Under the pieces are notes generated by a model. That model saw nothing but the letters and a program-made list of their open reading frames with translations. It was not told where the DNA came from and made no database searches. A stretch of DNA of 64,000 bases from Comamonadaceae bacterium (GTDB lineage Bacteria > Pseudomonadota > Gammaproteobacteria > Burkholderiales > Burkholderiaceae_C): positions 5,543 to 69,542 of the forward strand of contig JAIYCB010000050.1 of the NCBI GenBank assembly GCA_027488215.1, written 5' to 3'. The position numbers and the translations under genes were made by a program. Positions 39,843 through 60,645 of the stretch are shown in pieces (positions within the stretch are counted from its first letter, which is position 1; each line of letters begins with the position of its first letter).

Positions 39843-39879
39843 GCAATTGTCCCCATTGAATTCAAATGGTGTTAAAGGT

Positions 39880-40050
39880 GTCTGCGAGTGCCACCGGACC
39901 GGCATCCTGAACCGGGGTTCAGGTGGGCGAGGGCAGACTGGCGTTGGGTTCATCTGACGCGAGACGATCACGCTCACCAGCCAATGTACCAAGCCCGGGC
40001 TCTAAGAGCATTGGTTCAAGGAAATATAAAGCCCGGCATGCACCGCAGAC
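39880..40050 (-). ncRNA. ssrS: 6S RNA
   Basis: Ends pair (GTCTGCGGTGC / GCACTCGCAGAC); contains ATATTTCCTTGAACC and CCTGAACC-cc-GGTTCAGG; lies just downstream of zapA as is typical. Confidence 0.9.
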
Positions 40051-40110
40051 CAAGCCATTGTAGGCGTTAACAGCTTTGAACAGCAGTCGCCAGCATCACT
40101 GGCAGGCGCT

Positions 40111-40679: not shown

Positions 40680-40768
40680 GAAAAAAGAAGGTCTCCATTG
40701 TAGGGCGTGCGGTACCAAGTCTACTGATTTTGTTTGTTTGCCGACAGCTTTGAGCCTAAAATATGCCG

Positions 40769-40989
40769 TGTTGGTGCTCGCGATGCCGGTTCACGGCGCG
40801 CAGTTCAACGGGAAGCAGGAGGGGGGAGTCACCACGACCGTCCTAACCTGCGCTGCCCCCGCAACGGTAAGCAGACGGGTTCTCAATCCAACGAGAGCCC
40901 CGCTTTCACCTCAAACCACTGGCCGCCCTGAAACAGACAGCCGGGAAGGTGGTGAAGGTCGCCTCTGCCAGCCCGGATACCGGCCAACA
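40769..40989 (+). promoter_or_regulatory. Cobalamin (AdoCbl) riboswitch
   Basis: TGTTGGTGC...AACGGGAA...CTGCCCCCGCAACGGT...CCACTG...GGGAAGG...AGCCCGGATACCGGCCAACA core elements in the right order upstream of btuB. Confidence 0.93.
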
Positions 40990-41069
40990 AGGTGACCTGT
41001 TGCAAGACAGGTTGTAAAGCCCATGCACTGTCGGGGAAGGCGGTGAGGGTGTTTGACTTGTCTGTTTTT

Positions 41070-44680: not shown

Positions 44681-45693
44681 CCACTCAGAACAACGCAGCC
44701 CGCATGGCGCTGATACTACTGGCCTTGGGGCTGTCTGCAGTTTTGCTCGGCACTGTCGCAGGCAGCCAGGGCTTGCAGGCTTGGTGGTCGGCAGGCAGCG
44801 ATGGGGTGTCACGCCAGATCGTCTTGGAAATCCGTTTGCCGCGTAGCCTGGGTGCCTGGCTCGGCGGGGCTTTGCTGGGTCTGGCCGGGGCGGTGGCGCA
44901 AGGCCTGTTTCGCAACCCTCTGGCCGATCCTTATTTGCTGGGCAGTGCCTCTGGTGCTTCGCTCGGCGTTGGCATTTATTTGAGTTTGTTTGGTGGGGGG
45001 GCCTGGGCCCTCAGCAGTTGGCTGGGCCTGGGCCTGACGGGGGCAGCTTTTTTGGGCGCGGTTTTGGCGGTGTTGATCACACTGCTGTTGGCCAGGGGCG
45101 TGCAGCAAACGCTGCGCCTGTTGTTGGCGGGTGTGGTCGTGGGTGTGGTGTTGGGTGCAGTGACGTCCCTGATTTCGCTGTTGCAACCGCAGGTTTTGCA
45201 GGCCATGCAAGGTTTCATGTTGGGCTCGACCGCGTTTGTGAGTTGGAGTGCTTGCTTCACCATGTCGATGGTACTGGCGCTGTGCATGGCGCTGGCCTGG
45301 GTATTTGCTCGCGTCTTGGATGCGCTGAGTCTGGGTGAAGCCACTGCGCAGAGTCTGGGCGTGCCGCTGTACTGGGCGCGATTGGTGCTGGTGGGCGTGA
45401 TATCCCTGGCCACGGGAGCTGCCGTGGCGCACATCGGTCTGGTGGCCTTTGTGGGCTTGGCAGCGCCGCATTTGGTGCGTTCGCTGGTGCGCTGTACTTA
45501 TTCCTGGCGATTGTTTTTGTCGGCGCTGATGGGCGGGGCCATGCTCTTGCTGGCGGATGTGATGGCTCGGGTACTTTTTGCCCCACAAGAGTTGCCCGTG
45601 GGCGTGCTCACTGCGGTGTTGGGTGGGGGGTATTTGCTGTGGCGCGTGTACCGCGATGCCGACACCTGCTCGGGCGTCGGAGGACGTGCATGA
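44677..45693 (+). CDS. btuC: FecCD/BtuC ABC permease
   Basis: IRLPR, QGLFRNPLADPYLLG, FVGLAAPHLVR, ELPVGVLTA. Confidence 0.88.
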   Translation: MTTQNNAARMALILLALGLSAVLLGTVAGSQGLQAWWSAGSDGVSRQIVLEIRLPRSLGAWLGGALLGLAGAVAQGLFRNPLADPYLLGSASGASLGVGIYLSLFGGGAWALSSWLGLGLTGAAFLGAVLAVLITLLLARGVQQTLRLLLAGVVVGVVLGAVTSLISLLQPQVLQAMQGFMLGSTAFVSWSACFTMSMVLALCMALAWVFARVLDALSLGEATAQSLGVPLYWARLVLVGVISLATGAAVAHIGLVAFVGLAAPHLVRSLVRCTYSWRLFLSALMGGAMLLLADVMARVLFAPQELPVGVLTAVLGGGYLLWRVYRDADTCSGVGGRA

Positions 45694-46454
45694 TCGCGGC
45701 GCTGGAAACTCGCCAACTGAATGTCCTGCTGGGGGGGCGCCATGTGCTGCGCAACATCGATCTGCAGATCACAGCAGGTCGATGGACTTGCGTGGTCGGA
45801 CCCAACGGCGCGGGCAAATCCAGCCTGCTCAAAGCGCTCGCCGGTTTATTGCCCTGCAGCGGACAAGTGCAGTGGCACGGTCAGCCGCTGGCGACACTCA
45901 CTCGCCAGCAAAGGGCGCTGCAACTGTCGTGGCTGGGGCAGGGAGAAGCCAGCACGCTGGACCTGCGTGTTTGGGACGTGACCATGCTCGGCCGTCTGCC
46001 TCACCAAAGCTGGTTGGGCGCCCCCACGCAACACGATGCGCAGATGGTGGAGGCTGCCTTGAAAGCCACACAAGCCTGGGACTGGCGCGATCGCACCCTG
46101 GGCGAGTTGTCGGGTGGTGAGCGCCAGCGCGTGCTGCTGGCCCGCGCCATGGCGGGCAATGCACCCACCATGCTCATGGATGAACCTTTGTCCAACCTGG
46201 ACCCACCTCACCAAGTGGACTGGCTGGAGCAGGTGCAATGCTTGCTGGCGCAAGGCACCACGGTGGTCAGCGTGCTGCACGAGATTGGCATGGCGTTGCA
46301 CGCCGACGACATCGTCGTCATGCACGAAGGGAAGGTGGTGCACCACGGAGTGAGCAGCCATGCAGCCACTCATGCCGCCATCGAATCTGTATTTGGTCAG
46401 CGTATCCGAATCCTCCAACTCGATGGACAGTGGGTGGTTTTGCCACGTGTTTGA
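45690..46454 (+). CDS. btuD: ABC transporter ATP-binding protein
   Basis: GPNGAGKS, LSGGERQR, LMDEP, SVLHE. Confidence 0.9.
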   Translation: MIAALETRQLNVLLGGRHVLRNIDLQITAGRWTCVVGPNGAGKSSLLKALAGLLPCSGQVQWHGQPLATLTRQQRALQLSWLGQGEASTLDLRVWDVTMLGRLPHQSWLGAPTQHDAQMVEAALKATQAWDWRDRTLGELSGGERQRVLLARAMAGNAPTMLMDEPLSNLDPPHQVDWLEQVQCLLAQGTTVVSVLHEIGMALHADDIVVMHEGKVVHHGVSSHAATHAAIESVFGQRIRILQLDGQWVVLPRV

Positions 46455-46543
46455 TCAAGGATTGAGCGGCTCTTTTGATGAAATCGTGAAAGGAGACCAG
46501 GCATCCCAACCGTGTTGCATTGCTTTGAATGCACAGCTTGTAT

Positions 46544-46885
46544 TCATCGGCCAAAATGACTCGCAGACATGACCCTAGGGGCTGACGCTTTGACCGACTC
46601 CAGGGAGCTCAGGAGCAAGAGCGTGTCCACATATCCCATGAAGCGATGAAGGTAGTCGGGCGAGAGGTCACGCATCAGTTCGATTGAGCGCAGCACCAGC
46701 ATGTGGGAGTTGATGGGTCCGGGGTTTTGCGGGGCTTGGGCGAGGGCTTGGGTGACTTGCTTTTGCACGCTGATTTTGTTCAGTAATTTTCGAAACTGCT
46801 CAATGTGTGGATTGATCACCTGCCTTGCTGCCCCCTTCGCCCGCAGAGCATCCAATTCTGTCAGCGTAGGAGCAACTTTAGTCAT
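46544..46885 (-). pseudogene. Shortened DUF2894 protein (ZorG-like), probably internally deleted
   Basis: QALAQAPQNPGPINSHMLVLRSIELMRDLSPDYLHRFMGYVDTL matches the recalled DUF2894 C-terminus; only 113 aa; ATG overlaps the stop of the upstream OmpA-like remnant. Confidence 0.7.
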
Positions 46886-47184
46886 GGTTTGGCTGCTTCC
46901 TGATTTGGGGTAGCCGCTCTGGGCACTGGGGTCATTTCCACCCGGCGGTTTTGCGCGCGGGCTTGGTCATTTGTGTTGGCCACCAATGGTTGCTCTTGCC
47001 CAAAGGCGGCAGCGAACAAAATCGACTAGTGCATGCCTTCTTTGATCAGGGTGATGCGACCACTGGCCAAAGGAATTGCCAGGGCGTTTTCAAAGGAAAT
47101 CCACTTTTGCTCTTCGACTTGGCGCTTTTGAACCCCTGTTGGGATGGTGAGAATTTGATGGGTTTTAAATACCAAAAAGTTCAT
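46882..47184 (-). pseudogene. OmpA/MotB-like (ZorB-like) remnant with in-frame stop and internal deletion; not in ORF track
   Basis: Hand translation ...FENALAIPLASGRITLIKEGMH*SILFAAAFGQEQPLVANTNDQARAQNRRVEMTPVPR...; TAG at 47028-47026; OmpA core GxTD and LSxxRA motifs missing. Confidence 0.78.
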
Positions 47185-48128
47185 CCCATGCACGATTGGG
47201 TACGCGATTGCGACGGTGCAACAGCCCGCAGACCCTGGTCGTGCAAAAGGTACTTGTCAGACCAAGCGGCCAGGGCCTGCGATAAAAAATTGTCCTGCTT
47301 TGGCTGGATGGGCAAGCCAAGAACTTGCGCCGCCTGTTGGAGCGCTGCCAAGGGGTCAGACAGGTCCAGCGCCAGCGCGCCGTTTTGTTTGCTAAGTTTT
47401 TCTCCGTTCTCGCCAAGCACCACCGCGGTGTGGAGGTACTTTGGGGAGGGGAGGTCAAGGGCCGCTTGCAGCACGATTTGGCGGGCGGTGTTGTCGGCCA
47501 GATCTTGGCCGCGCACCACATGGGTAATGCCTTGGGCCGCATCGTCCACCACCACCGCCAATTGGTAGGCCCACAGGCCATCGGCGCGTCGCAACACAAA
47601 GTCGCCCACTTCGTCACACACATTCTGCTGTTGCGGACCCAAGCGTCGGTCGCTCCAGTGGGTGAGGGTGGGTAAGCCCAATGCGTTTTGCACCGCCTGA
47701 ACATTCAAGCGCCAGGCGCGGGCGGGTTTGCCATTCAGGCCATGGCGGCAGGTGCCCGGGTACACCGCCGCTTGATGTCGAGCCACAGAATGTGCTGCCG
47801 CCAATTCGATGTCTTTGCGTGAACAGCCACAGGGGTAGGCCCAGCCTTTTTCCACCAGGGTTTGCAAGGCTGCGGCATAGTGCTCGTCGCGCTGGCTTTG
47901 CCGCAGCACCGACCCATCGGGCACTAGGCCACAGACGGCCAGTTGCTGCAAGATGGCTTGGTCGGCCCCCGGGACGCAGCGGGGGGTGTCCACATCCTCA
48001 ATGCGCACCTGCCATTGGCCGCCATGGGCGCGGGCATCTAGCCAGCTGGCCAGCGCCGCGACCAGGGAGCCCGCATGCAAAAGGCCGGTTGGCGAAGGCG
48101 CAAACCGGCCTGTGTAGGGAATCCCCAT
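47181..48128 (-). CDS. gluQ: Glutamyl-Q tRNA(Asp) synthetase
   Basis: [50 protein letters not shown]; no anticodon-binding domain. Confidence 0.94.
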
Positions 48129-59461: not shown

Positions 59462-60645
59462 GGCTTCAGCCAGGCGCTCAGGCGGGCGATGGCAGTTTGC
59501 AATTCTGCCATCGAGTTGGCAGTGGAGAAGCGCACAAAGCGGGCGGTCTGGTCGGTGCCAAAGTCGCGCCCCGGCGTGATGGCCACATGGGCGTTTTCCA
59601 GCGCTGCAAAGGCGAATTCCCAGCTGTCTTTGAGGCCCAGTTTTTGGCAGGCGGCAGTGCAGTCTGCCCATGCGTAAAAGGCGCCGTCGGGCGGTACGGG
59701 AACGGTCAAGCCCAGATTGTTGAGTGCCGGAATGAAGTAATCACGTCGGGCCTTGAATTCGGCGCGGCGACGCTCGTATTCGGCGAGGCTGTCGGGCTCA
59801 AAACAGGCCAGGGCCGCTTGTTGCGACACGGAGCTGGCACAAATGAACAGGTTTTGCGCCAGGCGCTCCAGCACCGGCACCAAGGCCTCGGGCACCACCA
59901 GCCAGCCCAAGCGCCAGCCGGTCATGTTGAAGTATTTGCTGAAGCTGTTGATGCTGATGACGTCGTCGCCCAAGGCCAGCGCGCTTTGGCCAAAAGCGTC
60001 ATCGTGGCTCAAGCCCAGGTAAATCTCGTCGATCAGGGTGATGCCGCCGTGGCTGCGCACGACTTCAATGATTCGGGCCAGCTCCGCAGGGGCAATCGAC
60101 GTTCCGGTGGGGTTGGAGGGTGAAGCCAGCAAGACGCCACGGGTTCGTGGCCCCCAGGAGGCGGCCACTTTCAGTGCACTCAATTGAAAGCGTTCTTCGG
60201 CGGTGGTCGACACCAAAACGGCAGTGCCCTCAGCCGCGCTCACAAAGTGGCGGTTGCAGGGGTAGCTTGGGTCAGGCATGAGGATTTCGTCGCCCCGGTC
60301 AATCAACGCCAGGCAAGCCAATTGCAAAGCCGCCGATGCACCCGCTGTGACCACGATGCGGCTGGCGGGCACTTGAACGCCAAACCGAGAGGCGTACCAC
60401 TGGCTGATGGCTTGGCGCAGGGCATCCAGGCCAAGCGCAGGGGTGTATTGGGTTTGACCATTTGCAACAGCAGCTTGGGCTGCCTGCTGCACGCGGGGTG
60501 GGGCGGTGAAGTCGGGCTCCCCGATGTTCAGAAACACCACGGGCTGGTCGGTGTGCGCGACCTCGCGGGCTTTTTGTAAGGCGGCCTTTGCCACCTCCAT
60601 GACATAAAACGGCTCAATGCGTTCGGCACGTTTGGAGATGCGCAT
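59458..60645 (-). CDS. PLP-dependent aminotransferase class I/II
   Basis: LNIGEPDF, SPSNPTG, IDEIY, NSFSKYFNMTGWRLG. Confidence 0.92.
   Translation of the reverse strand: MRISKRAERIEPFYVMEVAKAALQKAREVAHTDQPVVFLNIGEPDFTAPPRVQQAAQAAVANGQTQYTPALGLDALRQAISQWYASRFGVQVPASRIVVTAGASAALQLACLALIDRGDEILMPDPSYPCNRHFVSAAEGTAVLVSTTAEERFQLSALKVAASWGPRTRGVLLASPSNPTGTSIAPAELARIIEVVRSHGGITLIDEIYLGLSHDDAFGQSALALGDDVISINSFSKYFNMTGWRLGWLVVPEALVPVLERLAQNLFICASSVSQQAALACFEPDSLAEYERRRAEFKARRDYFIPALNNLGLTVPVPPDGAFYAWADCTAACQKLGLKDSWEFAFAALENAHVAITPGRDFGTDQTARFVRFSTANSMAELQTAIARLSAWLKP

Follow-up and report, generated by a model that had tools for sequence, protein, structure and literature searches.

A probable relic of a Zorya type III anti-phage operon between gluQ and btuD in a Limnohabitans genome

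In a 64,000-nucleotide stretch of a Comamonadaceae genome (assembly GCA_027488215.1, contig JAIYCB010000050.1; hereafter the window), a minus-strand reading frame between gluQ and btuD is interrupted by a stop codon and followed by a short open reading frame. The question raised by this locus is whether it is the remnant of a Zorya type III system, as the initial annotation had proposed, and, if so, how the system was lost. Among type III systems, protection against phages is documented only for that of S. nitritireducens, in E. coli (Payne et al., 2021, PMC8565338). According to Hu et al. (2024, PMC11946911), ZorA and ZorB form a proton-driven 5:2 motor (ZorA5B2) that the periplasmic domain of ZorB anchors to peptidoglycan, and soluble effectors are recruited through the long cytoplasmic tail of ZorA; type III has the DUF3348 and DUF2894 proteins as its soluble partners.

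The names of these two partners differ among sources. In the text of Payne et al. (2021, PMC8565338) DUF3348 is ZorF and DUF2894 is ZorG, and Mariano et al. (2025) use the same naming. Hu et al. (2024, PMC11946911) give the order zorGABF, which is the opposite naming. Thus, the assignment made in the initial annotation (zorF for DUF3348, zorG for DUF2894) agrees with the text of Payne et al. but not with Hu et al. or with PADLOC-DB v2. In PADLOC-DB v2.0.0, the DUF2894 models PDLC00652-655 are labeled ZorF3 and the DUF3348 models PDLC00656-658 are labeled ZorG3, the reverse of PMC8565338, and annotation confusion is possible. We refer to both genes by their domains.

The locus comprises the following features (positions in the window).

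47181..48128, minus strand: gluQ (tRNA glutamyl-Q34 synthetase, GluQRS), 315 aa, upstream neighbor (NCBIfam NF004313, 452 bits, cut-off 380)
47135..47246, minus strand: retained part of the ancestral gluQ-zor intergenic region, up to the conserved CAACAGG (alignment with five relatives)
47125..47143, minus strand: junction of deletion 1 (about 3,272 bp absent relative to the congener G007; microhomology AGG)
47054..47134, minus strand: zorB piece A, codons 51-77 of the 213-codon ZorB3 gene (VQKRQ...ALAIPLASGRI; PDLC00651 profile positions 49-82)
47044..47056, minus strand: junction of deletion 2 (246 bp between direct repeats CACC(C/T)TGA)
46882..47053, minus strand: zorB piece B, codons 160-213 and stop, with TAG at 47026-47028 (PDLC00651 profile positions 161-212, E = 1e-14)
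46544..46885, minus strand: 113-aa ORF, the DUF2894 gene minus codons 19-102 (PF11445; alignment to P0002)
46820..46830, minus strand: junction of deletion 3 (252 bp between direct repeats (T/C)AGCAAGG(G)CAG)
45690..46454, plus strand: btuD-like ABC ATPase gene, convergent, downstream neighbor (BtuCD/FecCDE importer class)

The minus-strand frame 47193..46882 translates as ...ALAIPLASGRITLIKEGMH, a stop and SILFAAAFGQEQPLVAN...QNRRVEM..., the stop being the TAG at 47028-47026. Read from the GTG at 47193 on the minus strand, the ORF runs as ...VQKRQVEEQKWISFENALAIPLASGRITLIKEGMH to this TAG and then as SILFAAAFGQEQPLVANTNDQARAQNRRVEM...AAKP to a TGA. This TGA (46884-46882) and the ATG (46885-46883) of the 113-aa ORF overlap as ATGA. 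The hidden frame with its internal TAG and the overlap of its stop with the start of a DUF2894-like ORF were thus reproduced as first described, in coordinates and motifs. The btuD-like ATPase gene stands after BtuC- and BtuF-like genes with a cobalamin riboswitch ahead (40755-41002, plus strand, 76.6 bits, upstream of the btu transporter genes and present in G007 too), and "btuD" is a fair label because the importer operon sits behind this riboswitch. A 6S RNA gene, also shared with G007, was detected at 39875-40054 on the minus strand (46.5 against a gathering score of 46.4).

To what do the two pieces belong? The 113-aa ORF matched Pfam DUF2894 (PF11445) with E = 9.6e-29 and 101.7 bits (cut-off 25) over profile positions 107-184 of 185, and four PADLOC DUF2894 models matched it with E-values from 1.8e-34 (PDLC00652) to 2.2e-18, in agreement with its proposed identity. 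The closest intact DUF2894 protein is the 197-aa P0002, and the ORF corresponds to its residues 1-18 plus 103-197. It retains the native start, the ATGA coupling to zorB and the C-terminal 42% of the DUF2894 protein; a full DUF2894 component is absent from the locus, residues 19-102 of the closest intact protein being deleted.

The read-through OmpA-like frame matched PDLC00651, the single PADLOC model of ZorB3, with E = 9.1e-25, whereas generic Pfam OmpA gave only E = 0.029 and the best ZorB1 model 1.8e-4. The far stronger ZorB3 score means that the pieces are ZorB3-specific, and the possibility that they align better to unrelated OmpA proteins was not borne out. What they share with the MotB/OmpA-family peptidoglycan-binding proteins is the motif FAAAFGQEQP...NRRVE, the end of the OmpA-like fold (Pfam positions 64-98). 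This genome also encodes true OmpA/MotB paralogs (contigs C3, C29 and C45), which are intact and have no relation to the locus. Piece A shows 76-90% amino acid identity with congeners. A full ZorB3 is likewise absent here: codons 51-77 are fused in frame to codons 160-213 of 213, with the TAG in addition. The resulting stub has no membrane helix and no signal peptide, and its share of the OmpA-like domain is approximately a third (Pfam positions 64-98 of 98).

An intact operon, in the order DUF3348 gene, zorA, zorB and DUF2894 gene, was found directly after gluQ in five congeneric species (G007, G013, G033, G036 and G062). In G007 and G013, lysR and an amine oxidase gene precede gluQ, and the four overlapping genes and convergent btuD, btuC and btuF follow it; this is exactly the neighborhood of the window, with the gluQ-btuD interval filled by genes of 282 aa (DUF3348), 723 aa (zorA), 213 aa (zorB) and 202 aa (DUF2894). 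These four genes matched DUF3348 (3.8e-44), ZorA3 (1.6e-239, with an additional DUF802 match), ZorB3 (8e-103, with an OmpA match) and DUF2894 (6.2e-40), and ZorA is 91-92% identical in amino acid sequence among G007, G033 and G062. The ATGA overlap between zorB and the DUF2894 gene is the same in the window as in these relatives. An intact locus between btuD and gluQ in related strains, as the proposal had anticipated, therefore exists in G007 and G013, and the description of the window locus as a Zorya type III-like fossil is borne out by native order and coupling, by ZorB3 and DUF2894 homology and by the intact operon at the orthologous site.

In these relatives, the leader 5' of the DUF3348 gene is highly conserved (L031:5866-6021 in G007; also in G013, G033, G036 and G062). 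It contains a GAATTC-N9-GAATTC palindrome, a TAAAAT box and a GC-rich hairpin (AGAGCC TTCG GGCTCT), and may represent an operator and structured 5' UTR of the Zorya III operon. An Rfam search gave no match in either the relic locus or this leader.

We asked whether the missing partners reside elsewhere in the window's own genome (3.07 Mb, 53 contigs, 90% complete). In this 90%-complete assembly, ZorA3, a MotA-like channel with a long tail, was found neither by HMM (PDLC00647) nor by tblastn with the 723-aa ZorA of G007, and the DUF3348 gene was found neither by HMM (PF11828) nor by tblastn with the congener protein; the G007 protein (E = 3.8e-44) served as the positive control for the DUF3348 search. 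No second DUF2894 gene was present in it either. The statement that the DUF3348 gene and zorA are gone was therefore upheld within the 90% of the genome that is represented.

Comparison with the relatives resolved the loss into three deletions. A global DNA alignment of the relic with the 5.7-kb intact region yielded tiny scattered blocks, and local and protein alignments were used instead. Deletion 1 was located by aligning the gluQ-zor spacer with that of five relatives: the window keeps the spacer to CAACAGG and then continues with zorB codon 51. Relative to G007, 3,272 bp are absent (L031:5914-9185), with a microhomology of AGG only, comprising the remainder of the leader, the DUF3348 gene, zorA and zorB codons 1-50. 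The lost zorB codons encode the membrane helix with the proton-carrying Asp (SFADLMT). The breakpoint in the relatives lies immediately before the conserved TAAAAT box, which, given its conservation at this position, is likely a promoter -10 box; a scan for sigma-70-like consensus sequences called no promoter in either the relic or the intact G007 leader.

Deletion 2 spans zorB codons 78-159 (246 bp), is in frame and lies between CACC(C/T)TGA repeats; in 10/10 relatives the two blastn pieces overlapped by 6-12 nt in the window. It removes most of the peptidoglycan-binding domain of ZorB, approximately two thirds of the OmpA-like domain being lost. A second copy of the 13-mer at this junction occurs at 60031-60043, inside an aminotransferase gene, and is coincidental. 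Deletion 3 was defined exactly through P0002, which was retrieved in a large protein search and is encoded on the Logan contig L121. This contig carries a full DUF2894 gene, and both flanks of the gap are approximately 90% identical in DNA sequence between it and the window. The deletion comprises 252 bp (84 codons), is in frame and lies between (T/C)AGCAAGG(G)CAG repeats at L121 positions 385 and 636, and the blastn pieces share a 10-nt overlap in the window. Deletions 2 and 3 are slippage-type events between direct repeats of 8-11 nt.

The segment lost in deletion 3 is the conserved helical hairpin at the N-terminus of the DUF2894 protein, including the invariant D23...H28...L52. The AlphaFold model of the closest intact DUF2894 protein was poor overall (pLDDT 61, pTM 0.30), with a pLDDT of 80-87 over residues 20-65. 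As judged from this predicted structure, the lost invariant block would be the only confidently modeled element of the protein.

We propose the following history. The ancestor carried the operon directly after gluQ and just before convergent btuD, as in G007, G013 and G033, and three deletions reduced it from approximately 4.26 kb to 0.59 kb. The first (about 3.27 kb) took the likely -10 box, the DUF3348 gene, the entire ZorA motor subunit and the membrane anchor of ZorB; the second (246 bp), the bulk of the ZorB peptidoglycan-binding domain; and the third (252 bp), the N-terminal hairpin of the DUF2894 protein. A later change from TCG to TAG then broke the zorB remnant in the window's own lineage. 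Very probably, then, the region is a Zorya type III anti-phage operon reduced to a non-functional relic. It shares with the working system specific ZorB3 and DUF2894 homologs in native order, the ATGA overlap and the operon site of its congeners. Unlike that system, it retains only approximately 14% of the operon. ZorA and the DUF3348 gene are absent, ZorB is without its membrane helix and Asp and without most of its peptidoglycan-binding domain, the DUF2894 protein has lost 84 N-terminal core residues, and a stop codon interrupts the ZorB stub. It is therefore a relic of Zorya III and not a potentially working member. We infer from the gene content, with high confidence, that the remnants would have no defense function, because a ZorAB motor is impossible without ZorA and the ZorB membrane anchor. 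Present transcription, if any, would be read-through from gluQ.

Since the genome is a draft of 53 contigs and 90% complete, one may ask whether the short locus is an artefact of assembly or binning and the real genome has an intact operon. Independent assemblies were sought by exact-protein look-ups with the 113-aa ORF, gluQ and btuD. Ten runs, each assembled separately and belonging to three accession series (SRR16126841-43; SRR35819066, 70, 71, 79; SRR31285094), yielded Logan contigs that reproduced the short locus, with the same junctions or the same gene order (gluQ, 52-aa ORF, 113-aa ORF, btuD) as far as each contig extends; wherever the DNA itself was compared, identity with the window over the junctions was 99.9-100%. 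No contig with the exact gluQ or btuD protein of this species contained an intact operon, and every such contig that extended past the gene had the relic adjoining. Further, a 26-nt probe from the retained spacer identified the JGI metagenome contig L108 (1,144 nt), which is diverged from the window (96.6% identical, 31 mismatches) and yet colinear with it over all three junctions, which are identical. An artefact is thus extremely improbable, and we conclude from the separately assembled contigs that the short structure is no assembly error.

L108 also dates the nonsense mutation. At the position of the window's TAG it has TCG (Ser), and Ser is the consensus in intact ZorB genes and present in all intact relatives; both remnants are open in L108, with 103 and 113 aa. 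Because L108 carries all three deletions but retains TCG, the decay is still in progress. The junctions and the state of this codon establish the order of events: the intact L121 lineage split off (approximately 10% divergence), the three deletions occurred, the L108 lineage split off and TCG then changed to TAG in the window. The earlier view of the locus as a snapshot of loss with a shrunken zorB and DUF2894 gene accordingly stands as to the loss, with the qualification that the mode was three separate deletions and a later nonsense mutation, not a single truncation.

Are the remnants still under constraint? Several features run against a dead relic: the 113-aa ORF is open and begins at its native start with an AGGA ahead of it, and neither small deletion shifts the frame. 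The dN/dS of the remnants against distant congeners (G007 clade) was 0.13-0.32, and that of intact gene pairs was 0.07-0.41. Because the values of the remnants are no higher than those of intact genes, most of the divergence arose under constraint, before inactivation; either the decay is recent or the pieces are constrained still. With L121 as outgroup, the changes private to the window comprised 9 non-synonymous (including the stop) and 5 synonymous, compared with 2:2 for those private to L108; in the same window-L108 comparison, gluQ showed 2 non-synonymous and 4 synonymous changes. Residues conserved in at least 95% of sequences had changed at 3/32 columns of the DUF2894 piece and 4/39 columns of the zorB pieces, and most intact genes showed 0-1 such departures. 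These data point to relaxed constraint, although the counts are small and not statistically significant.

The same features could be read as signs that selection keeps the truncated genes as a functional mini-module; the C-terminal half of DUF2894, for instance, might by itself or together with the 103-aa ZorB stub have a regulatory role, serve as a decoy or work with another system. The low dN/dS against congeners, the open state of both ORFs in the 96.6%-identical L108, the ancestral residues that L108 holds at most sites changed in the window, the retained ATGA coupling and native start, and the in-frame nature of both small deletions would fit such selection. However, two in-frame deletions are expected by chance in 1 of 9 cases, and repeats that encode similar peptides favor in-frame loss. 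In the window, the zorB stub has a nonsense codon and the private changes number 9:5; further, the stub is devoid of a membrane helix and signal peptide with approximately one third of the OmpA-like domain, and the invariant N-terminal motif of DUF2894 is missing. Nor is there a family of short forms, the other short DUF2894 proteins being edge calls: those of 86-135 aa in a set of 5.8 billion proteins, considered as candidates for further relics, were internal-Met starts of full-length genes on contigs of about 1 kb. We consider it very unlikely that the truncated genes are under such selection, and give equally little credence to the specific form in which the 113-aa ORF and the 103-aa ZorB stub are a retained unit, co-transcribed with gluQ, with a new role. 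If it were true, the C-terminal half of DUF2894 would be an autonomous functional unit.

A separate pattern was observed at the 3' end of the DUF2894 ORF. Between the window and L108, 10 substitutions and no indel fall in the last 12 codons before the C-terminal GR (46586-46554, codons 100-111), and these ten are among the changes private to the window. The changed patch (46442-46586) runs into the next 100 nt, with 15% divergence and indels, and the upstream 1 kb differs by only approximately 1.5%. This patch may be a recombination tract and not point decay, or else a mutational cluster.

We examined how the operon is distributed in the genus and the order. A full-length DUF2894 gene was present in 25/36 sampled congeners, and the cultured L. 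parvus II-B4 and L. radicicola JUR4 have DUF2894 loci. In ten of the 11 congeners that lack it, gluQ is only 63-68% identical to that of the window, which indicates that these ten form a distant subgroup. Within the nearer subgroup, G034 alone lacks DUF2894, and no zor DNA was found beside its gluQ or btuD. Five congeners without DUF2894 (G001, G006, G016, G029 and G034) contained no ZorB3-like remnant, just distant OmpA paralogs, and DUF2894 was found in 0/24 genomes from other families of the order. The zor operon lies 0.2-4 kb from btuD in 10/10 relatives first examined and also in G033 and G062, and approximately 8 kb from it in G036. Several relatives have an additional ABC ATPase gene, or 4-8 kb of other sequence, between the operon and btuD (L027-L036, L068-L071), and in other congeners the operon is near btuD with gluQ elsewhere on the chromosome. 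The operon, near-core in this subgroup, therefore behaves there as a vertically inherited, positionally fixed locus. Such a stable position is unusual for a defense system.

This distribution suggests another reading, in which the operon of the Limnohabitans ancestor was primarily a motor module associated with the envelope, inherited vertically and serving the cell itself, and the relic records the loss of that role and not of immunity. Its near-core presence in one subgroup of the genus (25/36 sampled congeners), its stable proximity to btuD (up to about 4 kb in the ten relatives and in G033 and G062) and an operon dS that tracks the dS of the flanking genes are consistent with this reading. 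However, the PADLOC type III models give very strong matches to the Limnohabitans proteins, Zorya III of Stenotrophomonas nitritireducens reduced phage plaquing in E. coli (Payne et al., 2021, PMC8565338), and the absence of DUF2894 from all 24 sampled members of other families in the order is the patchiness typical of defense systems. A primarily cellular role is thus unlikely, and the two roles are not mutually exclusive.

As a relic of an anti-phage operon, the locus is a case of ordinary deletional decay of a known system, with the recoverable intermediate stages as a bonus. As in other pseudogenes that decay through deletional bias, stepwise deletions at repeats of 8-11 nt were followed by point mutations, and fragments remain between conserved neighbors; the added feature here is that three stages are public, namely intact (approximately 90% identity), deleted but open (96.6%) and deleted with a nonsense codon (the window). 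Defense-system loss is expected and common, and this relic changes no view of it. It nevertheless provides a clean, datable example of the dismantling of Zorya, by three deletions, two of them at short repeats, and then a nonsense mutation, with the stages preserved in public metagenomes. Defense-system finders that need the full gene set would silently report no Zorya here, and annotation yields a stray "DUF2894 protein". The expectation that standard annotation would miss the relic thus holds for the system but not for the 113-aa ORF, which standard gene callers do call and which is tagged PF11445. Because the subgroup has the operon as a near-core feature, no more than a few kb from btuD in nearly all relatives examined, the lineage of the window is a natural knock-out that could help to test the role of Zorya III in native freshwater hosts.

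The upstream neighbor has also changed. GluQ has 296-298 aa in the relatives, compared with 315 aa in the window. The TGA stop common to five relatives was lost by substitution, with a 3-nt gap beside it (47181-47246, minus strand); gluQ now extends approximately 20 codons into former intergenic DNA, and the stop codon that it now uses overlaps with the start of the zorB stub.
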